This document shows positions 37,201 through 59,672 of a DNA stretch of 64,000 nucleotides, piece by piece. The notes beneath the pieces were generated by a model. That model saw only the letters and a program-made list of their open reading frames with translations. It had not been told where the DNA came from and made no database searches. Both the position numbers and the translations under genes were made by a program. The DNA is from Haplodiscus bocki. Taxonomy: Eukaryota. Within the stretch, counting starts at the first letter, position 1. Every line of letters begins with the position of its first letter. The stretch spans positions 53,754,001-53,818,000 of the forward strand of contig OZ296650.1 in assembly GCA_965655095.1 (NCBI GenBank). Direction: 5' to 3'.

Positions 37201-37399
37201 GTATCAAAATTTTACAAATTGTCATATTGTTAGACTTTGGACGTTTCTGATGTATGATTTTGAACAGAATGTGGTTAAACAAACAAGTTTTTGCGTTTTC
37301 TTCCGTGTAGACATATGTTTGCCTTTTTAGTGCTTTTCAAAACAGCAGGTTTTTGTCACAGGACATTTATTCAATGAAAACAGAAACTGATTAAAAAAA

Positions 37400-40500: not shown

Positions 40501-40999
40501 GCACCCACGTGGGCGGCTCCGGTTCTCTTGAACTCTAAGTTATATGTTTACTTGGAAGTTATTTCTTGTTGCTTCTGCAATTTTCATTGACACTTGATAC
40601 GGAAGTACCTGGGGAAGTTCCCCGTGAAAGTTGTTCCTTTTGGTTAATTTTTTCGTACAGGCCCTCGTTTTCTCCGCGTACCATGTCTTCCCTGGTTAAT
40701 CCTTTCAAACAATATGATTTCAGTTGAAATCGAGTTCCAGTTTTGAAAACTATATTTGGGTACTTTTGTAAAAGTTTTCTACTTCAAGGTAGAAGGCTGT
40801 TTCGTCGTGTTTAGGCCATTTCATTCATGGACAGGATACCTTTAAAACTACTACGCTGTTGTAATACTGAGACTTGCTATTACGTCAAAAGCAGGCCTCA
40901 CTTTTCGCTCCCTTTTTTCCCAAAACTCTTTCTTCACTAGTGCAAATCAATATGGAAGTTCTCTAGTTGCTAAAAAATTATAGTTTTGTTCCACAATTC

Positions 41000-42133
41000 A
41001 GATTCCTGTTCCGTATCTGACCATCGTCACCTGAAACGACTTGTTGCTTTGAAGACTGTAGCAAAAAAAATCGGCAAGTTAAGGGACGTTCTGTTCAATT
41101 ATCAGTTTGCTCATTGTTTCTATAACTTGTTCAAATTCAGACTCATTGCAAGCATGTGGACAGAAGAGGGGCAATATTTCGTTATCGTGGAGAGAGCTGT
41201 TAGTTTTATTCGAAACTTCACATTAGCTGAGGAAATGAAACATATTGCTAAGTAAAATCTTCTGAAGAAGCTTTTCAGGATACTGAAATCTTTTTTTTTC
41301 AGAGAACACAAACCGCAAAAAAAGGAACAGAGATTAGCTGAAACGCATTGCATACATCGGGCAAACTTAATTCTGAACAGATTGCGCGGAAGTCAGTGAA
41401 AAATTCCGACAACTTTTGAACGGCAAAACCAAGTTTTTTTCAAAATTTTTTTTCATCACGTACCACTCGAAGTACAATGCAATTTGTCTCTGTTGAAATT
41501 GTTAACCTTGAACGGATATTTCACCATCTGTTTTGTCAACCAGTACATGTTTGCTTTTCAACAGTTTCCTCAGACATGAACCAAAGGCATGCGAGAATGA
41601 TTTCTGAAAAGTCTTTGGGACCACCAGACAGTACTGAACATAAATCCAAGCCCTTTCTTTTCCGACACAAGCTCTCCGCAGAAATTTAACTGATTTTTTC
41701 AAGTATCTCTGGGCATTAATTGAAGTTTTTTTTTAAGCTAGTGACGCATCAGCTGAACATTCATCTGAAAAACAAGGAATATACGGAAAAAAATTCACGT
41801 TTGGCTTTTATGTTTTTCCGAATTTTCCATCAAAACACAGACCGGGTATGTCAAGAAAGCTTTATCAAACATCAAAACAAAATGCCAAGATTCAGGCCGA
41901 CAACTGAAAACGAAAGCATACGACCATACTTCCTTTGCAAGTTTAACAATGTCGTAGTTGTATCTTACAGTTTTCTTGACTCATCTGATATTTTTTTTGT
42001 AGTTAAACCGTTACTTTGTCATATCGGTGTCTTGGTACATAGAATCAATGCCAGATTGTCATTTTTGTAAGCAGAATCATGTTTCAGAAAATCTAAAAGG
42101 GCAACAAAGCAATCAGTGAAATAATTGATCAGA
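41000..42133 (-). pseudogene. Decayed ORF of unknown family (copy B), 3' part, interrupted by the Polinton
   Basis: - strand reads CLINYFTDCFVALLDFLKHDSAYKND...VKKTVRYNYDIVKLAKEVWSYAFVFSCRPESWHFVLMFDKAFLTYPVCVLMENSEKHKSQT; homologous to copy A. The 3' boundary is approximate. Confidence 0.6.
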
Positions 42134-42139
42134 CAGTTC
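42134..42139 (+). repeat. Left target-site duplication CAGTTC
   Basis: An identical 6-mer flanks both element ends (42134-42139 and 59667-59672); 6-bp TSDs are typical of Polintons. Confidence 0.97.
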
Positions 42140-42800
42140 AGTAGTAAGAGTGTGAGCTGAGGTGAGCAGGGGGCCTGAGGACTCTAATGTATTAGGATAA
42201 GCTACAGCTAGCCGACTCTAGCCGAGAACCGAGAAGGGTCCTCACTCTAGCCGAGAGCTCTCGGTTGACGTAATACTCAACCCGGGCGACGTAATGCTCT
42301 GTTCTGATTGGCTGACGACTCGGGTTACGTAAAACTCGATTCTGATTGGCTGCCGAGAGCCGAGGGTGTTTGGCTCGGATGATATAATACTCGATCCTGA
42401 TTGGCTGCCGAGTCGTGTCGGTTCAATTTTTTAGGATATGGAGCCGAAAGCCGAGTCAAGGTTTTAAGGTAGGCGATGCATGTAATAAGATATGGAGCCG
42501 AGAGCCGATAGTCGAGTCAATGTAAAAACATAGGTAAAGCATGTCTTAAGATAGGGATGCATGTATTAAGAAACGCAAAGGGAATCAGTAATGTATAAGC
42601 ATAGGCTATAGTTCGTCTCATTGTATAAAGATATGGAATGACTCTTTTTCGGCAGTGTGCGACAATTTTCGGTACTGTGCGACTTTTTCGAAAAAAAAAA
42701 TGAGAAGTTTTTGGGTGCCCAGCGCCCGCGCGTATAATTATTACGCCTGCGGATAAATATTCCACCTACGCATAAATATTACGTCTGCGGATACTAATAT
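42140..42800 (+). repeat. Left terminal inverted repeat (~650 bp)
   Basis: AGTAGTAAGAGTGTGAGCTGAGGTGAGCAGGGGG... is the reverse complement of 59025-59666, ~85% identical over the first 100 bp by manual count. The inner boundary is approximate. Confidence 0.95.
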
Positions 42801-42904
42801 GACTTAAGGCTATGTCAAACTTTGTGTAATAGTTCGAAAAAGTTAATTAAACTCTATAAAAATGGACAAAAACATGATATAAACTGCACATTTACATGAA
42901 AAGA

Positions 42905-43297
42905 TTACGTGTAATTACTTTCAAAAGAGAGTACATTAACATCGTGAACCCCTGTAGTTTGTTCCTGTTGATACTTGAAGAGATGAAAAGCTGCATATAT
43001 TGTATAAAAGCCGCATACACTTGGGTGAGACTGTAGGGTGCTGGCATCATCTGTTTGTAGTGCTGCTTGAGAAAACTGTACCCTTTACATCCAAGAGATT
43101 CTGCAAGATATAACTCGTGTCGGAAATTTGCAATCATGATCCAATGTTCACCCTGCATATTGCTGGGTTGCGTGTTGATAATAGCAAAAGTGTCATTATC
43201 AAGAGTTGGAACACAGTCTGAAGGAAACGAACCGTGGTACCGAAATTTGAGCAGAGAGACACGACTGATAATTTTTTGTCAGAGCAAAATTCTTCAT
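42905..43297 (-). pseudogene. Adenain-like (C5) cysteine maturation protease, frameshifted
   Basis: Joined frames give FRYHGSFPSDCVPTLDNDTFAIINTQPSNMQGEHWIMIA...LYLAESLG...LQSHPSVCGFYTIY, with catalytic His (EHW), an acidic residue, Gln and Cys (VCG). Confidence 0.9.
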
Positions 43298-43299
43298 TC

Positions 43300-44625
43300 T
43301 TACACATTCTTTCCAACAACACCAAACTTGTCAACTGCAACCGACGACATTAGTTCACCCAATACAATGAGTTCAGTAACGTTTTCAAGAGGTTGGGTAA
43401 TTTTTAGTTCCAGTCTCAGGGGTTCGCCAACAAGCAGAAGATAGTGACAATTTTCAGTAGCGTCTTGCATTGAAGTCAAGTCAAACACCAGCGGATAGTG
43501 ATTTTCTGAAATCATCAATGGAGATTGAGGGAATATCATCCTGAAAGTTCATTGCTTTCATGGTAGTCACATACAGACGACAATTGTCAGCAGTATCAAA
43601 ATTTACAAATGGCTGTCCGCTTCCGAGTATTCTAATTTCTCTGAGATCAAATTGTTGATACCAGAAAGGGTTTTCAGTAAAAGAACCAGTGAAGGCAGAG
43701 TTTGTGTTCATTGCAATCGCGACTCGACGAATGGGAGCATTGTTGAAAATGTTTTTTTGGTTGATTTGGTTTTGTCTCACAGGTATGATGAATGTCTATG
43801 CCAAAGTCTTCAATTAATTGTATTCTACAGGAGCATAAGCGAACATGTCCGTTCTCTTTTGTGATAATCATCCTTGAGAGCAATATGACGAGTGTCAAGA
43901 GAACAAGCCACCATTCCAAGACTGAAATTGGGGTTGTCGCTTATCATGTAGAAATTGGGTCTAGCTCTTATTAGTCGCAGCCTAACTTTCATGTTTGGAT
44001 AGAGTAGTTCAGAAGTTGAGAAAAAGTCCATCCCCAAATTGCCATACAACATGAAACCGTCGGGTCTATTTGGCAGTTTCATTCTCCTTGTAAAAAAAGG
44101 ATCAGGTAAGGGGTTACTGATATCCTCAGGATCCTGTTCATAGTCATAGCCTTCACAATGCAAAACTCCCTTGTATTCAGAGATAACTGCCTTAAAAATG
44201 TTTGAAGTGTAAGACATGTGTGCATAGAGTCCATTGGAAATGTAAATCTGCTGATTGTTGAGGTACACTGCAACATTTGAAAACATTAAATGCACTATGC
44301 TGTTTACATAGGTAACTGGAGCTACTTCTTCCTCTTCTTCGTCATCGCCTGTTTCAGTGAAAACAACAGACTGATCTTTGTGCTCCTTTTCTTTTCTTGA
44401 CTCTCGTATGTATCGTAAACACGTCCTTTGACAAATTTGAGCTTCATTGCCAAAAAAGACTATCTCAAATCAACGTAATACTTCCGATCCGTTTGAAATT
44501 CAAATTCTTTGCAGCTTTCATCAAGTAAGGTAGTTGGATAAATTTCTTGCTCATGCGAAGACGGGACATCGCCGACAAATGGGATTTTCCCTCCAAGATT
44601 TCCAGACACTGCCACAAAAAGTTGG
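43300..44625 (-). pseudogene. Double jelly-roll major capsid protein (Polinton/adintovirus hexon-like), fragmented
   Basis: Consecutive fragments EIYPTTLLDESCKEFEFQTDRKYYVDLR, MFSNVAVYLNNQQI..SNGLYAH, LLYPNMKVRLRLIRARPNF, NIFNNAPIRRVAIAMNTNSAFTGSFTENPFWYQQFDL and VFDLTSMQDA...LRLELKITQPLENVTELIVLGE match the Polinton MCP pattern. Confidence 0.88.
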
Positions 44626-44816
44626 TACCGAAAATTGTTTTTTGACATGATCAACGAGAAATGTTTGTAAAAATGTCTCTTTGCGACCGACTGGATTGTT
44701 TATTAGATTTTGTTGGATTGAATCTCTTCTGTTTGCTACCTCCCAACTGGCTGTGGCTCCCTTCACCTAACTGTTTTCTTAGAGTCTGTCTTCCCACACT
44801 CTTTGCAGCTGTCTTG
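44626..44816 (-). pseudogene. 3' remnant of a small basic (putative core) protein gene
   Basis: KTAAKSVGRQTLRKQLGEG... lies immediately upstream of MCP, a position usually held by a small basic protein. Its 5' part was lost at the duplication junction. Confidence 0.5.
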
Positions 44817-45063
44817 AATGTTCTTCTCAGTTAGCTCTTTATCTAGTACAATCAAAGACATACTGCTTCAAAAGTCGACAAAGTTGAAAATGGAGGGTAG
44901 AAAGAGTTTTACGTAAAGGCAAAAGAATAGTCCAGTCACGTAACCAAGCAAACATGAATTTGGTCCTCGTACAATCATATGGCAGTAGCCTGGACCTTTA
45001 CCACTATGTGATCGAACTGCTCCAGCAGCATCGTGTAATATTGCATGCAGTCTGAATACTTTC
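44817..45063 (+). repeat. Internal direct duplication (247 bp), acceptor copy
   Basis: Matches 48278-48524 (offset 3461) with 5 mismatches and no indels. Confidence 0.97.
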
Positions 45064-45257
45064 TCGTCGAAACACTTGAATTTCCGCTGCGTTAAATTTT
45101 GGTACATTGATGGGTAGGACATTTCTGATATTGAAACCTCCCATTGCCCCTCCAAGATTACTTGCTCTGGTAAAAAGTTTGTGAAAGAACTGAGTGTATT
45201 GTCTGGAAGCAATTCTCCAGAAGCCTTAGAAACCAACTCTATTGTAAACGAATCCAT
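44868..45257 (-). CDS. Chimeric ORF: minor capsid (penton-like) N-terminus fused in frame to the C-terminus of the 'LHAILHD' gene
   Basis: MDSFTIELVSKASGELLPDNTLSSFTNFLPEQVILEGQWEVSISEMSYP is the typical Polinton minor-capsid start. From ~KVFRLHAILHDAAG onward the sequence is the duplicated 48329-48524 segment. Confidence 0.8.
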   Translation of the reverse strand: MDSFTIELVSKASGELLPDNTLSSFTNFLPEQVILEGQWEVSISEMSYPSMYQNLTQRKFKCFDEKVFRLHAILHDAAGAVRSHSGKGPGYCHMIVRGPNSCLLGYVTGLFFCLYVKLFLPSIFNFVDF

Positions 45258-45273
45258 CGTAAAATGACTTCAA

Positions 45274-46160
45274 TCACCTTTTCTGACAAAATTTGCCTTG
45301 AATAACCTCGCCTTGCTCATCCTTGATTGTGTAAGCTGGTGGTTTTTTTGTTGCAATTGCTACAATTCCAGAATCTTGTCGTGTAAACTGCGGCTTGTAA
45401 CCTTTGCGAAAAAGCAAGTCAAACTTTGAGATTCGCACTCTGTCACCAATTTTGAATGTAGGTTTCTTGAATTCTCGTAAATGTTTACTGTAAAGAATAG
45501 ACATAAAGTAGCAATTCTTTACGGTATTGGGTCTCATATCTATGGAACTGTTTCTTCTAGAGTTTAAGGTAGTGATAAAAGGAGATAGTTTGTGTATATA
45601 CTTGTACCCACAGTCTTCCATGTAACGGTAAAGAATATTTTTTTGGGATCGTATTGTACGTTCAGCAAAAGCAGCCTTAGTCTCACTCATTGTAGAGTGA
45701 ACTTGTATCCCATAGGCGGCACAAACCTTTTTAAAGGACCCACCAAATTCTGTTCCCTTGTCAACCCAAATGTTTTTTGGTCGACTCCTTTTTGTAATCA
45801 AGGATGAAAAGGCTTTCACAGTTTCTTGAGAATCTTCTGTTTTCATTCCCTTAGCATTTACAGTTCTATCACTCAGGTCTTGACGAACTAGTAAATAATT
45901 TACACCGTTAGTCGCTTTTGCCAATTTATCAACGTCAGTAAGATCCATGCACCAAATTTCGTTTCTGAATTTAGCAAAAGCCCTCAATTTCACGAATTTT
46001 CGTGCTGCCAAAGTATATTTTTTATTAGAATCCTTAGAATGTGAAACTGTCTAACATTTGATACTGGTAACCTGTTATCTCTTGCCAAGTTGCGTACAAA
46101 ACCGTAAGCACCAGCACCTTGCGTGTACAGTCTTTGCAGCTTCTGACGGTCATACTCTGA
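45274..46160 (-). pseudogene. Retroviral-like (RVE, DDE) integrase of the Polinton
   Basis: EIWCMDL (D), WVDKGTEF (D), KAAFAERTIR (E), then FKIGDRVRISK..FRKGYKPQFT. The N-terminal LQRLYTQG..AYG part is in another frame (frameshift ~46010-46050). Confidence 0.93.
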
Positions 46161-46559
46161 AAATGACCCAGCTTCCTCTATCTTTAGCTTTGGCATTCTG
46201 GTTAAAAACTAGAGAGGGTAATATTCCAGCAACGTCGAGTCAAGTAAAGTAAATTTATCGAACTTCTGGGTTTTTTCGACGCAAATGTAAAGTAAAGTCT
46301 GAGATTAACACACCAGTATCAAAACCATCCAAAATTTTTGTTTGCGAAATTGAAAACTTGATGCGACAACGAGATAAAATCTTGTCTGTTAGGGGTCTGC
46401 TTTGCCAAACAGTTTCTTGTTAATGTCTCTCTTTAGAGAATCAATTTGGTACGTGATAGGTTGTTCAGATTTTGAGTTTGGAAGTTCCTGCTTTGTAACA
46501 GATTGCTCAGTTACACTCTTGTTATACACAGAAGCTGGGACAAGATCACACTGCTCCAT
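46150..46559 (-). pseudogene. Polinton hypothetical protein upstream of the integrase
   Basis: MEQCDLVPASVYNKS...ILDGFDTGVLISDF...NAKAKDRGSWVIF with internal stops and a frameshift; tightly packed between neighbouring genes. Confidence 0.55.
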
Positions 46560-46560
46560 A

Positions 46561-46860
46561 TTAAGACAAATGACGGGAGGTGTCATGACTGCTATTAGTT
46601 GCAATTTTTCTTCTGACGACAGAACGTTTCTTCTTTGTTTCCAAATTGTTCTTTTGGGCAATGGTAGCCAAACGTCGTCTTGAAACTTTACCACGTGATG
46701 TCTTTTTATGGCAGGCAACTTTCCTTTTATTAAATTCACTATGCATTCGCATAGAAACCGGATAAACTCTTGTGGAAAAGACTGAAGAAAGTGGCTTTTG
46801 CATTTGCGGGAAAACAATTGGAACACCTGGAGAGGAAGGAGGTTTTGTGTGTTCATCGTC
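46561..46860 (-). pseudogene. Conserved small Polinton/adintovirus protein (xxCECxxNxxxG motif)
   Basis: FIRFLCECIVNLIKGKLPAIKR...KQRRNVL resembles the small basic ORF recalled to follow the ATPase in Polintons; overlaps the ATPase 3' region. Confidence 0.55.
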
Positions 46861-47510
46861 CAAAGTCCTTAAATGTTTTGAACAACCGGGAATATAAACT
46901 TTTGAGAGAATAGATCCACTGTTTGTGCAGTAACGTAATCTTTCATCTGTCCGCGGCGACAAATCAATCAACAAATGACCAAATAGAACAGACGTTGCAG
47001 CTCGATACCAGTCAACTAACTCTGATCCAAGACCCAACTGTGTGCTAAGGGTAGTTACTTTCTTTACGTCACGGGGAGATTTGAAGAGAACAATGTGAGT
47101 GTTTTGTAACTCAACATCTCTTCCTAGTTTGCTCTGGTGAAAAGGTTGTGTTTAATGTAGATTGTGCTGAGACCCCGATGTCGCCCAACGGTGGCAATGT
47201 CAACAAAGGCTTCTGAATTACAAATCTCCTCACAAGAATCGTCAAATATTAACAAGTATTTCGTGTCATTGTTTTCCAACGAATCAAAAAATTCAAAGTT
47301 TACTCTTTGCACAAACTCGAGATTTTCAAATTTTTTTTGTATAACATCGTAGAGAGGTTGGGAATGTTGATAGAAAAATTATATCTTGTCAAACTTTGGT
47401 TGAAATGTTCCAATTTTCAGCCAATTGTAATTAGGCTGCGATTTCCCATTTTCGGAAGGGCCAACCAATGAATTAGAGACTCGATTCTTTGTAGAAATTA
47501 ACTTGTTCAT
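46561..47510 (-). pseudogene. A32/FtsK-HerA family genome-packaging ATPase
   Basis: MNKLISTKNR...LVGPSENGKSQ (Walker A), YLLIFDDS (Walker B), GRHRGLSTIYIKHNLF (Arg finger and sensor), then THIVLFKSPRD...GHLLIDLSP; one stop and one frameshift. Confidence 0.93.
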
Positions 47511-47767
47511 CGCCTTGGTGAGGGTAAAATGTATCCTGCCGCACTGCACAAATTTCCAACCCTAACAGTTGATTCGTCACAAGTTTCTGAGAGGTGAGTT
47601 TTTCAGAAGAATCCAAAGATGATCAACAAAATAACAAAACGTTGGGACAGAAACACAAACAGCGATCTGGAACAGGTTTGTCCCAAACAGGCCCAAGATT
47701 TTTTCTCTTGATTGTTGTCGTCAAAGACATTTTCACCTAAAATAATGTTACGTTCTTGATCAGTCAT
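47507..47767 (-). pseudogene. Small membrane protein (W-x-C...Q...C...G-x-x-LPxP type)
   Basis: MTDQERNII...SWACLGQTCSRSLFVFLSQRFVILLIIFGFF*...CDESTVRVGNLCSAAGYILPSPRR; its stop overlaps the ATPase start (ATGA). Confidence 0.65.
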
Positions 47768-47859
47768 CTGTTTCCTAAGCTATATTTCTCAATTTGAATG
47801 CTATAGAAAATCATGTCGAGTTAAAGAATTAAATTAGTAGTAAACACGAAGGCAATAAA

Positions 47860-48322
47860 CACGTACAAAAACAATATTGCATAGCCCATTCTCCGTACAG
47901 CTTTGCTTTCCTCTCGGCACAGTGATGCCTTGTTTTGTGTCGGAAAATTTTACTAGAGCAGATCCACAAACTGTCCGTTTTGACAGGACCTTGAATTTTT
48001 GGGCAACCAGAGTCATCCAAATTTTCTACATTTTGTCCGAGAAGACTGGTCGACAGCCTAAATTTTCCAAGTTCTTCAGCAAACACTTCTGCATTCATTA
48101 CTTTTATGTCGTAAAAGACACCAAACAACTTATCATAATCCAGCTTTCCACTACTCCACGCAATTCCATGTAGATTACTTGTGTTCCATTTTGTCTGTTT
48201 ATTGGTTTAAACGTCTTTGGTGGGCCAAATGAAAATCCTTGTACAAATCCAGCAATAAAAAGTACCAATTCTTAACTAATGTTCTTCTCAGTTAGCTCTT
48301 TATCTAGTAAAATCAAAGACAT
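47860..48322 (-). pseudogene. Putative DnaQ/DEDD-like exonuclease-fold accessory protein
   Basis: MSLILLDKELTEKNI..ELVLF...FSFGPP, LHGIAWSSGKLDY, NVENLDDSGCPKI and HCAERKAKLYGEW across shifted frames; resembles a family recalled from Polintons. Confidence 0.5.
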
Positions 48323-48524
48323 ACTGCTTCAAAAGTCGACAAAGTTGAAAATGGAGGGTAGAAAGAGTTTTACGTAAAGGCAGAAGAATAGTCCAGTCAC
48401 GTAACCAAGCAAACATGAATTTGGTCCTCGTCCAATCATATGGTAGTAGCCTGGACCGTTACCACTATGTGATCGAACTGCTCCAGCAGCATCGTGTAAT
48501 ATTGCATGCAGTCTGAATACTTTC
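48278..48524 (+). repeat. Internal direct duplication (247 bp), donor copy
   Basis: In native context, spanning the end of the LHAILHD gene and the start of the exonuclease-like gene; copied at 44817-45063. Confidence 0.97.
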
Positions 48525-48733
48525 GACTAACGAAAAAAAAGAGTCCAAATAAGAGTTTCCATAACAATGAGTCCACCAAAGTTAAATTTTTGGTCCATCT
48601 CACGTAAAAAAAGACTAGAAACCCAAAAGAAACACGCGCTTCGAAATAGGTTTTTGTGAACACTATTGTGTTCAAATGACATTTTTGATTCCGGGTACAA
48701 TAAAAAAACGCTAATTAAAAAGAGAACATCCAT
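48329..48733 (-). pseudogene. Small accessory protein with an HxxLHD motif (possibly PLA2/DUF1353-like)
   Basis: ...FGGLI...*SKVFRLHAILHDAAGAVRSHSGNGPGYYHMIGRGPNSCLLGYVTGL...VDF*, with an internal stop. The family call is inferred from the HD motif only. Confidence 0.45.
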
Positions 48734-48750
48734 TCTTGACTGAGCTTGTT

Positions 48751-49035
48751 TTAATTATGAACAGTTGCTTCATCCAATACAATGCACTGCTTGTAGAAAA
48801 TGTCAATGTAGCTCAAGAGGTACACGCGCTTAGCAAGAAGCTTTTTGTATTCAATGAACTTTAAATCCATTTCAGTATCCTTGAGATACGTGTTGTTTCG
48901 ATAGCGGTAAACGACAATGTTCACCTTGTCTGTATCAGTTTGAAAAATGATGCATACTTCTCTTCTACCATTTAAAATTGTCCCATTTAAACAAGAAATT
49001 TCATCTTTTGAATCATTCCTTTCAATATCTGGCAT
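48751..49035 (-). CDS. Intact 94-aa accessory ORF with a PC4-like beta-beta-alpha signature
   Basis: ATG-initiated and uninterrupted; VNIVVYRYRNNTYLKDTEMDLKFIEYKKLLAKRVYLLSYID. Confidence 0.6.
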   Translation of the reverse strand: MPDIERNDSKDEISCLNGTILNGRREVCIIFQTDTDKVNIVVYRYRNNTYLKDTEMDLKFIEYKKLLAKRVYLLSYIDIFYKQCIVLDEATVHN

Positions 49036-49228
49036 TTGTTGAGTTTTTACCAGAGTTAGCGTAGATTTTTGGGAGAAACTTCTTTTCTAAGTAAAACATG
49101 ATACAGTCCCAGTTTTGTTTTGAACTTGAGGAAGAAGTTTTTATTATCTCCAAGAAACTGAGAGTTCCAAGTCATCTTGATTTGAATGAAAAGAGCAATT
49201 GATTGGAGTAAATAGTTGCAATTACTTT

Positions 49229-49809
49229 TTACAAAGCATTACAAATAGGTTGGTTAGCAAATACTTTATCATACACTGACTTCATGACGTCAAGAAGACA
49301 TACAAATTCCTTAAGTTTACAGTTGATATACACAATTTGCTTAAATTTTTCTTCCTGCGCCTTCCGTCCAAATAGACGAACTTGGGCATAGAAGTTTTGA
49401 GAGTTGTCCACCTTGTATCGCAGCAGTGTTACACAAATCCTTCTCTTTAGACAATCCACAACGTCAATCACCTTGTTACCAAGCTTGAGTTAATCCTCCA
49501 TGTCTTTGGACAGTGTAGATTGAAGCACTGGCGACAAATTTTGTCCCCTGAGAAAGTTGTCTGCTGCAACAACTAGTTGGTTTCTTTGTCGAATAAACTG
49601 GCTGAAATCAGCTTCTCCCATTGAAAAGTTTTGCCTCAGTTGAAATTTTGCGTTTTTGTTTTTTATCTTGAACACTTTTAGTTTAATATCCAAGTAGTTG
49701 GAACTTTTTTGGTCCAAGAAAATCGTCCAAATCTGTCTTGACCTTTGCCAAAGTCCACATAGTCGGTACAAATTAGCTTGTCCAAGGTTTCTGTAAGGTT
49801 GTAGGCCAT
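49229..49809 (-). pseudogene. Accessory protein with two tandem PC4/PurA-like repeats
   Basis: MAYNLTETLDKLICTDYVDFGK...YLDIKLKVFK...FQLRQNFSMGEADFSQFIRQRNQLV and YAQVRLFGRKAQEEKFKQIVYINCKLKEFVCLLDVM; one frameshift and one stop. Confidence 0.55.
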
Positions 49810-49972
49810 GACCAAACGAGATAGAATGTTGGTAGCTGAAAGTTATTTTAGTGAATAATAGTTAAAGAATGATTTTGGAGATTCATTTCGTTACTTTTAT
49901 ACGCATTTTTTTGATCATTGTGAAGTGACTTTTCCATAAAAGGAGATTCTTTCCTTTGTCGGTCATTGTCGC

Positions 49973-50607
49973 ATGACATTTTCATTTATGGAACATCTTT
50001 CCTTTTTTGATCGGTTTGTACAGAAAGTAAAAGTATCTTGTTTTTTCAGATGCATTTTGTCAACCTTTATCGCAGTAGAAAGGAGCTTCGGTGGAAGGGA
50101 GCTTGCGTACGGGAGGCAAGATGGCAGCCATTGTGTTACAATCAATCCACAGTTTTTACGCAAAAATTTCAGAGGAAACTCTCTTTGTTTCTGCAAATAC
50201 ATATGAAAAAGACATTTTCTGTAAAGACTACTGCATTGCCCATCACAACAACAAGACGTGTTTTTTACCCGCTTGTAAATGTCATATTGTACTACTTGGA
50301 AACGTTCAAGAGCTACTAAAGAAGTTCGATACATTTTGCTTCACCTATCAACACGTGGACTGCTTGTATACACTTTTCAAGTATCGATTCTTTGTAAAAG
50401 AAGATACAAGTGTTTGATAACGTACAACGAGCAGTTGACTTTCATCAAAGAAACAAGAGAGTGGACAGAACGCCGAGCATTGCAAAAAAGAGGCTCTTAA
50501 GGAAAAGGTACAAAACGCATTTACTCAGTTCTTTTCAAAAAACCAGAAGAGCGCAGACCAGTGGCTCAGTGTTTGCAGAAAGAATTGAAAAAAATGACTC
50601 AAATTGA
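49973..50607 (+). pseudogene. Fragmented hypothetical accessory ORF(s), Cys/His-rich
   Basis: Overlapping + strand ORFs (FCKDYCIAHHNNKTCFLPACKCH...) inside the element; no family recognised. Confidence 0.35.
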
Positions 50608-50699
50608 ATTGGAACTAATAAAATTTGTAGATTGTTTTCTTGATGGTCATGGTAATTATGATATTAAGTTAGTATCTTTTAAAATAAAATCTTTGTAAA

Positions 50700-50880
50700 C
50701 TAACCGTTTTTCGAATTCCAAAGAGACTTGTACAAATCAATTGGTAGTGCAAACGATATAGTCATCACACCCATCAAGAACGCAATTGCTATAAAGAATG
50801 CAATAACCAAAAAGATAATACCAAACGTGAGACAAACACATGCTACAGACTCGTAAAAAATTTTTACCCCAAGCCAACGT
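50700..50880 (-). CDS. Possible small hydrophobic (membrane) protein
   Basis: VACVCLTFGIIFLVIAFFIAIAFLMGVMTISFAL is a long hydrophobic stretch in an open frame; the start codon is unclear. Confidence 0.35.
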
Positions 50881-50954
50881 CTTTCTCTAACTAGTTGTCC
50901 TTTGATGGTTGTAGCACTTTGACAATAAGTCAGCGAGAATCTGAGGGGACGACT

Positions 50955-51535
50955 TTGAAAAGCAGATTTCAAAACAAATTTTTAACAACGTGTCAGATTT
51001 TAAATGTGATTTTTCACAAGGCGTTACATTTTAAAACAAAAAGTTTGCAACAAAAAGTTTTTCTAAGAAGCACAATTTTGACGAAAAAATATTTTTAAAA
51101 AGCACGATTCTGAAGAAAAAGATGTTTTTAAAAAGCACGATTTTGAATTAAAAAAAATTTAAAGCAGATTCTGAAAAAACTTTTTGCACACAAAAAATCA
51201 CGTTTTGATTCTTTTTACCCCGTAAGATGTGCAAATTTTGCGTTTTACGTGCAATTTTAAAAAGCACGTTTTAGAAGGAAAAGTTTTTTCTTAAAAGCAT
51301 GATTTTGAAGAAGAAAAATTGTTTGAAAAGCACGATTTCAAAAAAAAAATTATTTCTAAAAAGCATGATTTTGAAGGAAAACGTTTTTGTAAAAAGCAAG
51401 ATTTTCAATTAAAATGTTTTCGTCTTGTCAGATTTTGAATCAAAATTTTTTCGTCTTGTCTGATTTTAGAACCAAACTTTTCGTCTTGTCAGGTTTTAGA
51501 ACAAATTTTTTACAACGCGTCAGATTTTGAACAAT
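50955..51535 (+). repeat. Internal tandem array of ~30-33-bp A/T-tract units
   Basis: About ten AAAAGCA(C/T)GATTTTGAA-type units, plus (CGTCTT/CAACGC)GTCAGATTTT(G/A) units at 50985 and 51421-51530. Confidence 0.85.
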
Positions 51536-51882
51536 TTACCTAAGTCCACCACATGTACTTTTCACAACGTTGTCTTTTCTATAACCATGTACAGTTACAG
51601 CCTACAATCTCCTCGTCAACTAGATTATAGCACTCTCCACCGTTCAAACAATACTTTTTGTACCCTTTTTCGCAAGGACTTTCGCTTTTGATTTCGCTGT
51701 GATGTCCCACTTTCTATTCTGAAGTTACTTGATATATGCAAAAACCAATTGCTGCTAATAGTAAAGCTTCAACGAATAATACAGTTTTAATCTGAGACAT
51801 GTCTGACTAGTTTTTGAAAAAGTTTATTATAAAATGAAACACGTTAAATATAATTTAAATCAAAACACAAACACAGTAAAAC

Positions 51883-52458
51883 TCATCGAAACAATTTTCT
51901 AAAAACATAATCGGGTACATTTTCTGTTCTTGCTCGAAAAGCGCGACTTTTCTGCAGCCTGGGAGGTTCCATGGGTCTGACAGACTCGGGTGTTGATGAA
52001 GGAGCATTCTCTTTGTCTTCCTGTTCATCCAACACAATGAGGTTTTCAACTGATCCCTCCATAAATAAATCGTCAAAGATTGTTGGAGAGAAAGGGGTGT
52101 CTATGCCTGGTCTGAACACTGCGTCCAACTCCAATTGTGAATTCTCCCAGTTGAATTCTATGTCTTCGAGATCCGACACTTGATAATTGCTGGTATCCAA
52201 GTCTTGAGCCCCCACACTGGACAGTACTTCTTCTCTCATTTCAATTGTTCCCTCTTGGTTGGGAGTAATTAGAACTCGCGCTAGGTGGTTGTTCAAAAAG
52301 ACTTGTCTTTGAGACAAGAGCAATTGCCAGGCTGCTAGGGGTATTTCATGTGAGCTGATTGTTATTTTTTGGTTGAGATCATTTACTGCAATAGTAACAG
52401 AGTCGGGACTAAAATCGAGAGTCCACTGGATTCCGTCGTTTGAGACTGAGAAGATCAT
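51883..52458 (-). CDS. Intact 191-aa accessory ORF: N-terminal beta/alpha domain plus acidic, disordered tail
   Basis: ATG to TGA uninterrupted; VTIAVNDLNQKITISSHEIPLAAWQLLLSQRQVFL followed by a D/E-rich region (VSDLEDIEFNWENSQLELD...FDDLFME). Confidence 0.75.
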   Translation of the reverse strand: MIFSVSNDGIQWTLDFSPDSVTIAVNDLNQKITISSHEIPLAAWQLLLSQRQVFLNNHLARVLITPNQEGTIEMREEVLSSVGAQDLDTSNYQVSDLEDIEFNWENSQLELDAVFRPGIDTPFSPTIFDDLFMEGSVENLIVLDEQEDKENAPSSTPESVRPMEPPRLQKSRAFRARTENVPDYVFRKLFR

Positions 52459-52599
52459 GATTTTTTCTGTAAGTTAGCTGAAGGTTGAATAAAGTTGGCT
52501 GGTTGACAAAAGGTTGAAATTGAATAAAAAGGTTTGAAAAATGAAAATGTTGCTCAAATCATCAGCCAATAGGAAACGGATACGTTTCTTCCACATTTG

Positions 52600-53176
52600 G
52601 ACTCATTTCAACCTTTTTTGTTGCAGGTGACTGTGGTTGGTGGGGAATTGTTCCGAGAAAAAACCTTAATGAACATTTCTTTGTCGGGTAACATCTTTTT
52701 TAGCAAAGAAAAAGCGCGTTTTGTCTGTTTGTGTCGTCTTAATGTGCTCTTGTAACATAAAATGAACTTTGTGAACAAACAACCAGGCTCCACACTTTCC
52801 ACAACCATAAATGGATCTTGGTGTTGTTACATAACCGCAAAGAGGTTCGCATTCCTCTCTGTTCGAAAAATACTTGGCAGGACAAAAGACATCTCCAATA
52901 ACTTTCTGAATTGGGTTTGGGCTCTCTTCAAAAATGTAAACGCTTTTGACCAAGCGACAAGTAAAATGAGTTTGTTTGTTCTTCGAAAAGAATATTGCGC
53001 ACCTGACACACAGACGCGCAATGCGGTCATTGACAATCGGTTCTGCCGGGAGATTCAAAAGTCTTTTTGTGCGGGCAAAGTTTACCCGAACACTTTGTAT
53101 TTGGACAATACACGTTCCCAATGAGAATAAAAGTGCTATTGTCATACCCACAATCTGGAGTGCTTGCGCTGCACAT
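52600..53176 (-). pseudogene. Cys-rich protein with two zinc-ribbon-like units
   Basis: IGNVYCPNTKCSGKLC...CQ*PHC and IGDVFCPAK...LCG...YGCGKCGAW lie in successive frames. Confidence 0.45.
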
Positions 53177-53795
53177 TGTATTTGCTCTCAAAAATGTCAC
53201 ACTTGTAAGCAACAAAAAATCATTTCTTGTAGATATGTTTGATTTCGCGGTAACCCAGGTTGACAACTTCTGTAAGAATGAATTGATCACCGTATTGTTC
53301 AAACTTTTCGATGGAAAATGCGCAAGTCTTGTTCTTTTCAAACCGGAACGATAATCGAAATTGTCTGTTCAAATGGTCAACTGTATCCTTGTAACAATGA
53401 CCGAAAAGTTTGTCTTTTCCTTTTGTAAACCCAATCTCAATTCTAGGTTTGGGTAATGGAATCTGCGGTACTTTGTTGGCTTAATCAAAAGCTTGGAGAA
53501 ATTCACCCAAACTGTCGAGTAGAGACTCAATTCGTTTTTCGGAAGTGCTGACTTCTTCCTTGAGAACAAATCGTTGCTGTAACTTTGAATCGCAAAAATG
53601 AAACACTTTGAATGCAGAAGACTTTTTGTTGGATCCTTTGCCAACTCGAAAGTATCGGTGGTGGGACTGTGAAATGTCCGAATTGTTGTAACAAAAGTAA
53701 CTATCAACGTCGGTTTCGTCCAAAAATTCTTCTGGTATTTCCTCGTTTACTGAATAAAGTTTGCACAAGCTCGAAATTTGCTTTTTGGAACACAT
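53175..53795 (-). pseudogene. Accessory protein with two tandem PC4/PurA-like repeats
   Basis: A single frame with two in-frame stops: ...AFKVFHFCDSKLQQRFVLKEEVSTSEKRIESLLDSLGEFLQAFD*...CAFSIEKFEQYGDQFILTEVVNLGYREIKHIYKK*. Confidence 0.55.
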
Positions 53796-54125
53796 CAACT
53801 GATTATAAATGAAAACAGATTGTAGAATGAAAAGTGGTGTAGCGGTAAAAATAATGCTGATTTGTCAAGGAATTTGATTTGAACAATGACAACACTTTTG
53901 TCCAACCAGATTCCTGTACTGCAACTTTGTCTAATAAATTGTGAAACTGTGGCGGTTGAAAGTTTTGATCAATTTTTGCCGGTGAATACTAGAAATTTCT
54001 AGAACAATCCATAAACAGGTACTTTTAACTACTACGCTAATTGTGCGGTAAACAAAAGGTATATCTTTCATAGGTTGATTGACAATTGAGATTAAGACTC
54101 TTTTGTTCAACTTGAATATTTTTCG

Positions 54126-54290
54126 CAGACTAAGCGTCTACTTAACAGGGGGAAATTTTTGCGCTTGATTAAATTTCTCAGACAGTCTTTCTACTTATCT
54201 GGGGGAATTTTTCCACTTGAGTAGTTTTATCAGACAGTGTGTCTATTTATCGGGGGTACTTGTTTACTTCCCTCAGACAAACTGTCACCT
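54126..54290 (+). promoter_or_regulatory. ~53-bp tandem repeats in the divergent intergenic region upstream of pPolB
   Basis: CAGAC..(G/T)TCTA(C/T)TTA..GGGGG units start at 54126, 54179 and 54231, with a partial unit at 54274. The regulatory role is inferred from position only. Confidence 0.5.
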
Positions 54291-54568
54291 TGTCGGGAGA
54301 TTAAAGCTTTTTTAATTACGTTGTCAGATGTTACGTCTAAACATGGAGGAAATGATTCACAGCTCATGCGGTATTTATTTTTGAAGTAAGTCTTGCCTTT
54401 TATGGTTGCTCTTTCATTTTATGGAATTTTCTGGAGTTTTCTTGTGATTGAGCAATATAATATAAAAATACTTGCTACAAAACTTTAACCATTATCTCTT
54501 TTGCAATGCGAAAATCAAGTAGGTAAAGTTGTTACGTTAATTTTCAGATTATTTTGTATATTACTAAA

Positions 54569-57500
54569 ATGCCTGCTCTGGATCGAAATGTTAAAATTAC
54601 TTGCGGAAATTGTGGAACTTCAGTAACGAAGAAAAATTTATTTCGACACAAGAAAAATTGTTCAGCTGGTACATTGTATTGTTCAAAATGTGCCAATTTC
54701 TTTACAAAATCAAGGGATGATTTAAATTATCTTATTGCCAAAAAACACAGTGTTCCAAGACCTTCAAAAACATACAAGTGTAAACTATGTTATGCAGAAT
54801 TTCCCGGTTTTTATGCTTCACGTCAACACACAAACACTCAACGGGGAACACAAATTGGATTCGGAGTGGGCAATATTGATGTGGAGGATATAGTGGGAAA
54901 TATTGACGATCAAATATTGGGAGAGGAATTGGAATCTTGCAAACACATTTTGACACATACTGAAATGAAGAATGGAAGACACTGAGTCTTCAACTTTCCC
55001 CTGTCATCCTTTGACATTTCTTTGCTCATCAATAAACTGGATTATGTATTCAAAAAGCTGAAATGTGCTGCAAAAGTTAACATTGCATTTGGATTCGTTC
55101 TGAAAAATATTGAGGATGGAATGTGCAGATACTTTTATGCTCACGAGAACAATACGGCTATGGAAAAATCGAAACTTGTGTGTACACCTGACAATATTGC
55201 CAACCTGAAAAAGAAATTACAGAAAATGGATACTTTTGATCTTCGCACACGAGAGAGAGCCAATACAAAATGGAATTTTTACAAACTAACAAATGTGCCA
55301 GTTTTTGCAGAGCTACTCAAAAATATACCCATGGGTTGCAAAGATGCAGTCATACCTGAACCACTTTCGAGAACTTGTAATGTGAATTGGCTTACTTTTG
55401 AGAGAACTAGGAGTGAACCCTACAATAACAATCTTTGTCTTTTCAGAGCAGTTGCTCTGCACTTATTTGGTAACGAGAGATTGGGGGGGAAACATCCGAA
55501 ATCTTCAACATTTTCTTGAACATTTGTGGCGATGGAGATCCATCAACGTTCCAGGGTGTTCAAATGACTGATATTCCGAAAGTGGAGGAGAAGTTGCAAC
55601 TCAAATTTTTCCTTTACGACATTGATTTTGTGGATGGAGAGCTGATTGGGGAACTAGCACGAAGAAGTATTCAAAAGTTTGAAAAGAGCGTCAAACTTTT
55701 ACGTTATAACAATCACATTTGTTACGTCAGCGATATCAACTCCTTATTCAATTTTTTTCGCTGCAGCACATGTGACACAATCTTTTCAGAGACTGGAAAT
55801 TTGAAGCGATTTTTGATTACATGTAGCAAGCGAGTCAAGCACATTTACCCAAAGAATGTATACTAGTTAAGAGAAACTCTCTTTGAAAAGTTGGATTCTT
55901 TCAAAATTCAAAACAGAGAAGATCAGAAGCTGTTCAAAAACTTGGCCAATTTTGATTTCAAATCCGTTTGCGTTAAAGACGAGACGTATAAAGAAACTGA
56001 AACTACAAAATGGATTGGAAGACATGTCCCTATATCAGTCTCAGTTTCGTCAAACCTAACACCAGAACCCATTTTTCTTTGCAATTCAGATCCTCTGCAC
56101 CTTGTACCTTCTTTTATCAGAACCCTTGAAGGCTTGGCAACGCAAAGCGAAGCACAAATGAAATTAAAATTTATTGAAGTAGAGATCGCAATCAACATTA
56201 AACTATCTAGTGTCTTGGAACAACTCAACCAAAGACACAGTCGAAGAGATTGAGTCATTGATTTCGAAGACGACGAGTTTTTCAACGACACTGCGGACGA
56301 GAAAGAGTTGTCTTCTCAGTTCCTCCAATGCAGAAAAACGAACTAATTGATTTGAAGGAACACTTTGAGCGTTATTGTAACACGTTGCCAGTTTATGGTT
56401 TTAACAGTGCAAAATACGATATCAATTTGATGAAGTCGGATCTGTTGCCAATTCTTGTAACGAACGACAAATTGAACCAACAGTTATCAAAAAAGCTGAT
56501 CAGTTTGTTTCCTTCAAGTTAGGTGATGTCCAGTTACTTGATATTTTGAACTTCCTTGGTGGGGCCACTAGTCTTGACTCGTTGTTCCTCAAAGCTTACA
56601 AAACAGTTGAAACTAAAGGCTTTTTCCCCTATGAGTGGTTCAACAATCCCGAAAAGTTGAACAAGAATGAACTACCTGCATACGATTCCTTCTTTAGCAA
56701 ACTGCTTAATATTAATCTTCTCGAGAAAGATTATAACGACTTTGAAAACCTCAGTAATAGTGGTTTATCGAAAGAGCAAGCAGTATGCAAGTTACGACTG
56801 AAAAAGATACCTCCAACAGGTGATGAAAATTACTCATTTTTGCAGAGCATCTGGGTGAGCGAAAGAATGAAATCTTTCAAAGACTTTCATATGAAGTACA
56901 ATAACAAGGATGTTGTTCCAACTCTAGAAGCAATTCAGAAAATGATTGAATTTTACCACCAAAAGGAGATTGATATGTTAAAGTGGGGTTGTACTTTACC
57001 TAATTTGGCAATCATTTGCCTGCATAAATCAACAGACTCAAAGTTTTATCTTTTTACTGAAAGCGACAAAGACTTGTTGGAGAAGATGCGTGAAGATTTG
57101 GTTGGTGGTCCCTCCGTTGTATTTACACGCAAAGCAGTGGTTGACGAAACTTTTATCCGCAAATCAACGGATTTGTGCAAGTCACTTGTCGGCATAGACG
57201 CAAACCAACTCTATCCCTTTTCGATGTGTCAACCAATGCCTACTGGATTGTATGCAAGTTAGAATTATGAAATAGAATGTCAAAAGTTCTGGCCTCGACA
57301 GAACAAAACACGCTCTTTTGAAATAATGGTCCTTTCTTATTTTCAACAATCTCGTCCGGAGTGTAAGATTGAAAGCAATGTTGCAACTGGTAGACAAAAG
57401 GAGATTGATTGATGCAATCTGTTACCAATGTAACACTGTCTTTGAAGCAATGGGCTGTTATTTCCACTACTGTTCATGCCAAGAAGGTCGCCCGTCATTG

Positions 57501-58908
57501 ATTGACAACGAAATTATGAGAGGCATAAGAAAGAGGGAACAAGACCAAATGCGCAAAGATTATAGCCAACAGAAAGGATACAAAACTATTGGAATGTGGG
57601 AGTGCAAGTGTTGGGGATTATACCGAACTGATGCAACAGTAAAAAATCATCATCGAGCAAATTTCCCCTATGAACGGCCTCTCAGCGAAGAACAACTCAG
57701 GCAAGAGATTATGAGTGGGAGGCTGTTTGGTTAGGTTCAATGCCACCTCAAAGTTCCTGAACACCTGGAGGCATACTTTGCCAATCCCAATTTTCAAAAG
57801 TACTGTTGTAAGTAGAATTTATATCGGAGGTTTGATGAAAGAATATGGAGAAAAAAAATGGGATTATGTCACAACCCAGAAGAATGCTCATATCAAGCTT
57901 CCACCTAAAGAATGGAACTATCATCAATCCCTTACTATGATATTACTTGCATCTGGGGCTTGAAGGTACAAAAGTTCAACAATTCTTCAGTATACTCCCA
58001 AGAAGTGTTTCAATAGCTTTGTGCAGTCTGCCATCAATGCTCGAAGATAAAGAGATGAAAATCCCAACTCAAGCGTAGTGGCTGAAACAATGAAATTTTT
58101 AGCAAACAGTTCCTACGGATAGCAGATCATAGATCGGAGTCGACATACTGTGACAAAGTAGTTGAACGATGAAAAGACTCACAGTGCAATTAATAGTGAA
58201 CTTTTCAAACAACTTAACTTCATCAATGATTAATTGTAAGAGGTTGAACTTGTCAAGTCAGAAATTGAGCACCGAGAACAAATCATTGTCGGTTTCTTCA
58301 TTTTGCAATATGCCAAACTCAGAATGTTGGAGCTTTATCATAACCTCTTTAAAAAGTTTTGCGATACCGAAAAGTATGAAGAGCTTGAAAAGGATACCGA
58401 CTCTCTATTTTTACCTCTGTCGGAAGACAACTTAGAAGACAATATTCTCCCAAAAAAAAGAAACGAATGGGAAGCAATACGTTCGCGAGACTGTACTGAT
58501 AGCTTCACTGCGAATGCAACAAATGACTTCTTCCCAAGAACATGTTGTACTGCTCAGAAGAAGCATGATAAGAGGGAGCCGGGACCATTTAAAGAAGAAT
58601 TCAGGTATTCAGAAATGTTGTGCTTGTGTTGCAAAACCTATTGTTGCTACGATCGAAAGAGTAACAAGTACAAATTCAGTAGCAAGGGACTCAATAAAAG
58701 AACTCTGGAAGACTGTGGAGATGGACCCATGTCAAAGTATCGCAAAGTGTTAGAAGAGGCAGCCAACGTTACTTCAACCAGCAGAGGGTTTCAAAAAATG
58801 AAACATAGCGTTGCAACCTACGAACAGACAAAACAGGGATTGTCCTATTTCTACCCAAAACGTCTTGTAGAAGAAGATGGAATACATACTGAACCATTAG
58901 ATTTATAA
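54569..58908 (+). pseudogene. polB: Protein-primed B-family DNA polymerase (pPolB) polyprotein, fragmented
   Basis: N-terminal C2H2-type zinc fingers; NNNLCLFRAV...YNNHICY (OTU-like Cys/His); ExoI NFDFKS, ExoII GFNSAKYD, ExoIII YNNKDV; motif A DANQLYP; motif B KFLANSSYG (~58095-58120); motif C DTDS; KGL. Many stops and frameshifts. Confidence 0.95.
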
Positions 58909-59024
58909 ACTTTTCTTTCAATGCGGTCTTGTAGTTTTATACATTCTATTTATCTTTACCTTGTCCGCTTGTAATTCCATACATTCGAATTAACTTTTTA
59001 AACTTTTTACACAATCTTTTTACA

Positions 59025-59666
59025 TAACATCGAACCGCACACGTAATAAAATATCCGCAGGCGTATTGTTTATCCTCGCGGGCGGTGGGCACCCAAAAAA
59101 ATTTGAAACCTTTTTGAAAAAGTCTCACAGTACCGAAAATTAACGCACAATGCCGAAAAAGGGTCTTTCCATATCTTTATACATTGAGACGAACTATAGC
59201 CTATGCTTATACATTACCGATCTCCTTTGCGTTTCTTGATACATGCATCCCTATCTTATTACATGCATTACCTATCTTAATACATTGACTCGAATTTCGG
59301 CTCTCGGCTCCATATCTTGAAACATGCATCGCCCATCTTAATACATTGAGTCGGCTTTCGGCTCCTTATCCTTACACATTGAACCGACATGACTCGGCAG
59401 CCAATCAGAATCGAGTATTACGTCACCCGAGTCAAACACCCTCGGCTCTCGGCAGCCAATCAGAATCGAGTACTACGTAACGCGAGTCGTCAGCTAATCA
59501 GACTCGAGCATAACGTCACCGGAATCGAGTCTTACGTCACCCCAGAGCTCTCGGCTAGGGGTGAGGATCCTTCTCGGTTTTCGGCTCGAGTCGGCTTGCA
59601 ATAGCCAACCTTAATACATTAGGGTCCTCAAGCCCCCTGCTCACCTTAGCTCACACTCTTACTTCT
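59025..59666 (-). repeat. Right terminal inverted repeat (~640 bp)
   Basis: Ends ...CCCCCTGCTCACCTTAGCTCACACTCTTACTTCT, the reverse complement of the left end. Confidence 0.95.
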
Positions 59667-59672
59667 CAGTTC
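59667..59672 (+). repeat. Right target-site duplication CAGTTC
   Basis: Identical to 42134-42139. Confidence 0.97.

Follow-up and report, generated by a model that had tools for sequence, protein, structure and literature searches.

The window analysed here, a 64,000-nt stretch of the Haplodiscus bocki genome (assembly GCA_965655095.1, contig OZ296650.1, positions 53,754,001 to 53,818,000 of the forward strand), contains a Polinton of 17,527 bp at window positions 42140-59666. By the features tested the element is a Polinton and works like one, while this particular copy is an old, dead and internally deleted insertion. Taken as a whole, it is best explained, with a good deal of confidence, as a dead, internally deleted hybrid, whose capsid gene, accessory genes and ends belong to one sub-lineage (Y) and whose polymerase core would derive, likely by recombination, from another (W). 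The sequence-only reading from which the analysis started had missed two points, namely this hybrid make-up and the very large clade, with young copies, to which the insertion belongs.

Structure and decay of the insertion

Polintons are copied by protein-primed strand-displacement synthesis from the ends of their terminal inverted repeats (TIRs), and their rve integrase inserts them with a 6-bp target-site duplication (TSD). In the window copy the protease, major capsid, core, minor capsid and integrase genes, two small open reading frames (ORFs) and the ATPase gene follow one another on the minus strand, and the polymerase is encoded on the plus strand (Table 1). Both this order and the Pfam matches bear out the sequence-only reading of a virus-like Polinton, in which a minus-strand series from protease to ATPase precedes a plus-strand protein-primed family-B polymerase (pPolB).

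Table 1. Features of the Polinton and of its left flank (window coordinates; aa, amino acids).
Feature	Position	Strand	Remarks
Nested inverted pair 1	33441-33649/41825-42033
Nested inverted pair 2	35140-35323/40562-40746
Nested inverted pair 3	35485-36245/38941-39703
Left TSD, CAGTTC	42134-42139	.	exact match to right one
Left TIR	42140-42755	+	616 bp; end AGTAGT; inner sub-repeats of 38/55 bp and ~60 bp
Adenain-type maturation protease	42910-43297	-	PF00770 E 0.005; frameshifted; 131 aa in open copies
Major capsid protein (putative), type Y	43303-44639	-	3 stops and 5 frame-shifting gaps; 450 aa in open copies
Core gene, 3' remnant	44654-44818	-	53/120 codons kept
247-bp duplicate (98%) of 48278-48524	44817-45063	.	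replaces ~830 bp from the core and minor capsid genes
Minor capsid (putative), 5' remnant	45057-45257	-	67/267 codons; label by position
rve integrase (retroviral-type)	45263-46196	-	PF00665 E 1.6e-08; frameshifted
Conserved ~134-aa ORF	46153-46559	-	function unassigned; broken
~100-aa ORF overlapping ATPase 3' end	46569-46856	-	no lesion seen
A32/FtsK-type packaging ATPase	46570-47510	-	PF04665 E 0.003 here, 1.4e-4 in open copy; broken
Accessory 1, ~151 aa	47873-48322	-	putative DEDD-exonuclease-like motif; broken
Accessory 2, 134 aa	48332-48733	-	unnamed; broken
Accessory 3, 138 aa	48754-49175	-	unnamed; frameshifted
Accessory 4, 193 aa	49232-49809	-	predicted tandem Pur-alpha/PC4/Whirly fold; broken
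Accessory 5, 197 aa	50121-50694	+	unnamed; frameshifted
Array of 33-bp and 31-bp repeats	50982-51528	.	between two convergent genes
Accessory 6, 191 aa	51889-52458	-	C-terminal half acidic; no lesion seen
Accessory 7 remnant	52663-52694	-	~32 bp of a 131-135-aa zinc-ribbon gene; ~300 bp deleted
Accessory 8, 166 aa	52677-53164	-	two zinc-ribbon repeats paralogous to accessory 7 (hhalign 97-99.9% probability); broken
Accessory 9, 208 aa	53172-53795	-	unnamed; type Y (90% vs 66%); broken
Protein-primed family-B DNA polymerase	54569-58905	+	~1,450 aa in open copies; 11 stops, 16 frame-shifting gaps
W-type polymerase tract	55150-59026	+	left junction zone ~55150-55750, right end ~58950-59030
Right TIR	59052-59666	-	end AGAAGT
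Right TSD, CAGTTC	59667-59672	.	exact match to left one

The polymerase, which has N-terminal C2H2 zinc fingers and a VSR-like insert, matches PF03175 with 34.1 bits (cut-off 25.8, E 1.9e-08), and the integrase matches PF00665 with 35.2 bits (cut-off 32.6). The ATPase (PF04665, E 1.4e-4 to 3e-3) and the protease (PF00770, E 0.003-0.005) fall just under the curated cut-offs, at the expected positions. In addition to PF03175, the polymerase may carry the N-terminal OTU domain of Alpha adintovirus or pPolB2-type polymerases, to which a Cys motif (residue 287 in an open copy) would belong. The VSR-like insert (residues 916-1014) gives weak scores, with TIGR00632 at E 0.003, far under the cut-off, and PDB entries 1vsr and 1cw0 at E 0.4-0.6 with the motif aligned. 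The major capsid protein had no match in sequence searches of Pfam, PHROG, NCBIfam or the PDB; it is homologous to proteins annotated as 'F54H12.2-like', which we take to be Maverick capsids, and the label is a probable one based on position and this homology. In other copies the putative minor capsid gene is represented by an ORF of 267 aa in the customary position, for which profile searches gave no match, and the core gene is presumably 'pVII-like'. The same pPolB, rve integrase, packaging ATPase and adenain protease genes, and probably the same capsid genes, occur in animal Polintons or Mavericks (Polintoviricetes, Amphintovirales; the 'adintoviruses' of Starrett et al., PMC8502044), whose Alpha class is fitted by a PF03175-positive polymerase; the same (AGT)2 ends and 6-bp TSD are reported for them (PMC8097293).

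The TSD is exact at both sides, as first read, and chance agreement of two such 6-mers has a probability of 3.5e-4; among 21 other copies the TSD was exact in 11, mismatched in three and left unresolved by the script in seven. The TIRs, initially put at ~650 bp and ~85% identity, are 86.2% identical over an alignment of 616 bp. Polintons typically have long TIRs that terminate in (AG)n or (AGT)2; the AGTAGT terminus originally claimed for both ends, and present in most sibling copies, holds on the left, while the right end (AGAAGT) departs from it by one change. Contigs of public runs bridge the left (X1) and the right (X1 and X2) host-element junctions with few point differences, and the insertion is therefore not confined to this assembly; an empty-site joint was absent among the 15 joints displayed of 64 in these contigs.

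The two TIR arms differ at 82 of 614 sites (Jukes-Cantor distance ~0.147, or 0.074 per arm), which is in line with the terminal branches of 0.062-0.089 leading to the window copy in capsid and polymerase trees of 24 copies. Decay after insertion would thus amount to ~7% per lineage and would be neutral. CpG-driven decay of the TIRs was rejected, since 6 of the 36 transitions lie in a CpG context, and there are 46 transversions. In 80 sampled random stretches of the genome the observed/expected ratio of CpG is 0.89, with little sign of CpG decay.

The sequence-only reading of an old insertion, with many stops and divergent TIRs, is sustained, as 16 of the 18 genes are broken or truncated relative to open copies (the lesion gap counts, taken from BLAST alignments, are approximate). 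Its description as a complete provirus with a full virion module is not, because ~three quarters of the minor capsid gene and ~half of the core gene were lost by replacement. At the site of the 247-bp duplicate all seven old copies that cover the place have ~830 other bases, and the joint was common to no other fetched locus. Short shared letters at both joints suggest that a template switch produced the duplicate. Its divergence is 2%, against 14% for the TIRs, which places the duplication long after insertion. A second gap of ~300 bp, at ~52660, removed nearly the whole of one zinc-ribbon gene.

To the left of the element three old nested inverted pairs (67-69% identity) occupy 33441-42033, and an assembly gap of Ns lies near 34000-34200.

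Abundance, youth and selection in the clade

A genome search with the TIR gave 42 matches among the 40 candidates scored of 5,292, and the compared set comprised 10 old, 8 young and 10 polymerase-selected copies, all from separate stretches. When a close capsid relative served as query, 94 places were scored at 97-100% identity, of which 82 are stop-free; these are the best of 17,327 candidates and are biased to young copies. The first-look candidate counts (17,327, 15,632 and 15,525) do not measure copy number and do not enter into the estimate given below. The sequence-only reading recommended a search for intact copies; young copies have the same gene order, all nine accessory ORFs are open in most of them, and several have TIRs 95-100% identical. 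Between young copies with Y and with W capsids, the ratio of nonsynonymous to synonymous substitution (dN/dS) ranges from 0.06 to 0.25 for the 14 genes, out of 16, in which dS is unsaturated; eight of these are accessory genes. The accessory block is therefore real coding sequence under purifying selection.

The nearest named relatives of the capsid, at 34-36% identity, are 'uncharacterized/F54H12.2-like' proteins of the acoel Convolutriloba macropyga, while a fish protein reached 24%; no named relative above 36% was present among the ten distant clusters looked up. From these comparisons the family seems undescribed, which upholds one half of the earlier suggestion of a distinctive, undescribed lineage with a large accessory block; the suggestion must be amended in that the clade is abundant and has young members.

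The genomic load was estimated from 120 evenly spaced 10-kb stretches of twelve chromosomes, with unplaced contigs left out. Sequences of the clade covered 12.0% of bases by BLASTN or TBLASTN (bootstrap 7.0-17.5%), 11.5% by DNA alone and 7.8% (3.9-12.5%) at ≥80% identity. More than 1 kb of clade sequence was found in 21 of the 120 stretches, and reversed control sequences gave 0 matching bases; coverage was 13.7% in the first 80 stretches and 8.6% in the later 40. Capsid genes, detected in 8 of the 120 stretches, correspond to ~8,400 loci (Poisson 3,600-16,500), or ~6,900 when reckoned by bases. The same sample held more distant Polinton families (L077, L098, L104, L145 and L182), with capsids at 34-56% and polymerases down to 21%.

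Such a load likely exceeds any reported for an animal, although methods differ between studies and 5% of the bootstraps fall below 7.8%, the coral maximum; the wide interval and the inclusion of more distant Polinton families also weigh against it. Corals are described as holding the largest number in metazoans, with up to 1,724 regions, 2,802 capsid hits and ~7.8% of the genome (PMC11131425). Theirs is likewise a massive proliferation in an invertebrate genome; the population described here, one closely knit clade, compares with these maxima at ~8,400 loci and 12%, by different methods. Other reported values are 4.5% Maverick sequence in the acoel Praesagittifera naikaiensis (PMC6451197), 0.83% on average in Ensifera (PMC11539627), 0.3% in the rice weevil (PMC8576890) and 1,672 copies in the soldier fly (10.64898/2026.07.10.737754), and a preprint on the nut weevil reports a large Maverick expansion (10.64898/2026.07.14.738529). 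Vertebrates, in contrast to the thousands of copies here, have a reported median of eight Polintons (PMC8097293). Outside animals, the Mavericks of the protist Trichomonas vaginalis are likewise a leading genome component with thousands of capsid genes; their reported share is higher (27-54%) and their capsid genes (4,841) are fewer than the point estimate given here (PMC10120064). A higher animal load was not found in the literature searched, outside of which subscription papers lay, and one of this size is likely new to print.

The chances seem about even that no larger Polinton population has so far been observed in any animal, with on the order of 8,000 or more copies in about one eighth of the chromosomes, still recently active and forming one recombining gene pool. 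In this pool a single capsid module would run on at least four interchangeable polymerase cores, with the zinc-finger and terminal-protein end of the polymerase tied to its TIR type. If the load holds, Polintons would also rank among the main determinants of how large this genome is.

The strong purifying selection on the capsid genes points to spread at least partly in virions. The alternative, that the clade multiplied purely in the germline nucleus as a transposon and without virions, is unlikely but by no means negligible. Derivatives that have these TIRs and 6-bp TSDs but contain no genes occur in 3 of the 120 stretches and indicate mobilisation in trans, and no related capsid was confirmed in IMG/VR (18 pattern matches), so that a related free viral contig was not found there. 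Neither virions nor free genomes nor transcripts were seen. Spread by transposition alone is nevertheless hard to reconcile with dN/dS values between the sub-lineages of 0.06 for the capsid, 0.06 for the minor capsid and 0.12 for the protease, or with the open state of 82 of the 94 best capsid matches. Should the population be as large and as freely recombining as suggested above, this genome would be the best place to look for the never-isolated virion of animal Polintons.

Hybrid make-up: Y capsid and W polymerase core

The capsid gene of the window copy is 90-91% identical to those of 11 young Y-capsid copies and 75-77% to those of seven W-capsid copies. The 3' core of its polymerase, in contrast, is 91% identical to that of the same seven W copies; identity falls to 75-76% with type B and to 68-69% with types C and D, while the zinc-finger end of the same gene is 84% identical to B and 70-71% to W. 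Among sites diagnostic of B or W, the W-like share rises from 34/129 to 159/186 across the junction (chi2 112), and a sliding comparison places the W tract between ~55.15-55.75 kb and ~58.95-59.03 kb. Capsid and polymerase alignments of 24 copies each reject the tree of the other (approximately unbiased test, p ~3e-05 both ways). The same switch, together with a Y-type upstream gene (90-93% vs 66-69%), was present in 11 of the 29 other loci fetched by a junction query, and the twelve hybrid copies, including that of the window, are 89-94% identical to one another. As these 11 copies are dispersed, the hybrid itself was mobile, in one old wave. A young member of the hybrid lineage was absent among the best 40 of 3,777 candidates, in a lower-bound search whose next best copy stood at 89%. 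Two further loci (L025 and L209) switch at different places, and a third (L017) has a B patch within the W tract; exchange therefore occurred more than once. Young copies combine one capsid type (94-100%) with polymerases B, C and D, and type Y overall is found with four polymerase types (B, C, D and W), which are 73-84% identical in protein.

The Y and W capsids are 79% identical and the B and W polymerases 77-80%, and distances this close are what would be expected were the W polymerase native to the W capsid. On this basis a Y-type genome would have taken up ~3.5 kb of W-type polymerase by homologous recombination, with W as the probable donor, and would then have spread as a hybrid. As one nucleus contains thousands of genomes that are 70-99% identical, segments could pass in this way between copies, whether these were replicating or integrated. 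After its insertion the window copy would have decayed neutrally, and a template switch guided by microhomology would afterwards have removed the greater part of its minor capsid gene.

By motif position, with the domain order taken from PMC11161782, the junction zone probably lies within the terminal-protein and vOTU part of the polymerase. The TIRs of the window copy align over ~570-720 nt with those of Y-capsid copies and over ~100-230 nt with those of W-capsid copies, and the possibility that TIRs move with the polymerase core was accordingly rejected for this copy. The zinc-finger and terminal-protein end of the polymerase, the part that would prime at the ends, may thus remain linked to one TIR type, and the catalytic core may be exchangeable, although in one well-sampled hybrid lineage plain linkage could also explain the pattern. 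Sibling TIRs diverge more (72-79% between copies) than genes do (85-92%), with internal repeats shuffled, while their outer ~100 bp are alike across types. Further exchange tracts are seen in the accessory block at 47740-48900 and ~50540-50700, which are 82-91% identical to W-capsid copies, against 65-80% for the remainder of the element.

Several points weigh against the hybrid and deleted state of the copy as set out above. The transfer direction rests on matched distances, with no outgroup root; with respect to the hybrid, the young B and W copies are descendants, not parents; and the zinc-finger part is only 84% identical to B copies. The left junction is graded, since L210-L226, which have B cores and are not hybrids, share a W-like patch at 55.25-55.5 kb, and it is for this reason given as a zone. 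The capsid itself was checked in only two hybrid copies. Finally, public-run contigs of other copies end exactly at 44817-44818 and 45062-45063, and the deletion joint itself is crossed, on its left side, by one exact 57-nt contig only, under the 31-letter bridging bar, such that an assembly error is possible.

That the swap ran in reverse, the W-capsid lineage having taken its polymerase core from the lineage of the window copy, is an unlikely account. It would agree with an unrooted polymerase tree in which the window copy and one other (o3) stand just outside the tight young W cluster, and with young W cores that are 98-100% alike, as after a recent sweep; it sits poorly with the match between the W-B polymerase and W-Y capsid distances, with the B, C or D polymerases of most Y-capsid copies examined, and with the Y/B-like character of both the zinc-finger end and the upstream gene of the hybrid.

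Improbable as well is a drive in which the VSR-like nuclease would spread the core by cutting and converting, in the manner of a homing endonuclease. The exchanged tract does include the insert, separate junctions or patches occur in L025, L209, L017 and L230, and a homing route has been proposed for polisuvirus replicases (10.64898/2026.10.13.758929). Yet the motif of the insert is also found in B- and D-type polymerases (PHROG endonuclease and PF18741 matches), which leaves no empty allele for homing, and a nuclease-free accessory segment is likewise common to Y and W (83-88%). A VSR nuclease insert is reported for marine nematode and mollusc pPolB2, and the insert found here may point to that marine group (10.1101/2023.08.22.554363). 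Very improbable, lastly, is a complete provirus of a rare, distinct lineage marked by its accessory block: both TIRs, the exact TSD, remnants of all 18 genes and the distance to named capsids would suit it, but the minor capsid gene, the core gene and a zinc-ribbon gene have lost large parts of their sequence, the same accessory block recurs in young copies with either type of capsid, and the clade is very abundant.

Recombination between sub-lineages, the account favoured here, has partial precedents. Reassortment of capsid and polymerase is known in adintoviruses (PMC8502044) and in polisuviruses at large (10.64898/2026.10.13.758929), and the pPolB1 and pPolB2 Polintons of nematodes likewise combine different polymerases with otherwise near-identical elements in one genome (10.1101/2023.08.22.554363). 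The nematode report concerns two polymerases with 16% identity and the replacement of an entire gene, whereas the four types found here are 73-84% identical in protein, their junction falls within the gene, and one hybrid lineage is documented by no fewer than 12 copies. It is by its scale that the present case is unusual. An in-gene polymerase junction between close types, apparent from sequence comparison in a dozen dated copies, was not found in print.

Polintons are mostly low-copy in animals, and both virion formation and the exchange of replication modules have so far been deduced from deep trees. The single copy of the window is an ordinary fossil, whose value lies in the population that it samples: thousands of copies of graded age in one assembly, with datable hybrids and with junctions within the polymerase gene, permit direct measurement of how often recombination occurs, where its tracts end, how firmly the polymerase N-terminus is linked to the TIR, and how strongly capsid genes are selected. 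If the gene-pool reading given above is true, they would form a natural recombination map of what a Polinton polymerase has to recognise at its origin.

Accessory proteins and further observations

The accessory genes span ~5.9 kb, or 6.7 kb up to the polymerase start, in keeping with the ~6.5 kb first estimated. None of the nine proteins was named at cut-off by Pfam, PHROGs or NCBIfam. Accessory 1 is 'DEDD-like' by a putative motif, and a PDB search and profile searches gave no match for it. For accessory 4, a model of an open copy built from a 28-row alignment (pLDDT 78, pTM 0.75) resembles repeats I-II of Pur-alpha (Foldseek E 1.4e-05; VIA Z 13.7, root-mean-square deviation 3.4 and 142 aligned to PDB entry 3k44), with Whirly and PC4 proteins ranking below Pur-alpha; the Atlas lead was PC4 (0.82), and no Pfam PC4 match was obtained. 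A single-sequence fold (pLDDT 46) was not used. Accessory 4 is thus predicted to fold like Pur-alpha/PC4, with a tandem arrangement of beta-sheet plus helix, and would likely serve as a single-strand-binding helper in strand-displacement replication. Because BFVD contains a protein of similar structure from a described Drosophila adintovirus (rank 45, E 5e-3), the block is less exotic than had been proposed. The proposal that the 138-, 191-, 193- and 208-aa proteins are all PC4-like is unsupported beyond the 193-aa one, no pair exceeding 20% probability in profile comparison. The same method revealed three related zinc-ribbon repeats across two genes (accessory 7 and 8); two W-capsid copies (L152 and L153) have one zinc-ribbon gene (134 aa), and a Y-capsid copy (L045) has two (131 and 166 aa).

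Poxvirus-style late promoters were rejected, as no TAAATG start was found among 18 gene classes at 42 loci; TAAAATG/TAAAAATG starts are confined to the protease (11/18, made by the upstream stop) and the core gene (7/18). The genes lie close together, either overlapping or 2-20 bases apart, and a TATA-like motif is absent (starts in L032-L067 and L151-L156). Several starts appear to be preceded by pyrimidine tracts with a terminal AG; these could act as splice acceptors if the transcripts were polycistronic.

One gene-less derivative (L021/L022; G000:C6:106653112-106668128) is a 15-kb element with the family TIRs (93%), an exact 6-bp TSD and the 33/31-bp array, and lacks Polinton genes; it consists of two ~7.5-kb arms in inverted orientation that are 94% identical. 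Sequence from its interior was met again, over more than 2 kb each time, in 3 of the 120 random stretches, and the derivative family is therefore common. The array, kept in this derivative, may be a cis signal. A tandem array at G000:C1:163.13-163.19 Mb (L240-L256) has a ~2.03-kb unit, 97.7% identical between neighbours, which joins the 3' end of the polymerase gene to a portion of the TIR; this is a satellite that originated from the terminus of a Polinton. Wnt matches at three loci, with none in 14 control genomes, mark the host as an animal, and the acoel origin of the nearest named capsids is a mere hint to its affinity. At one of these three loci, G000:C3:31196892-31197824 (L148), the Wnt match covers 286 profile positions in one open frame.

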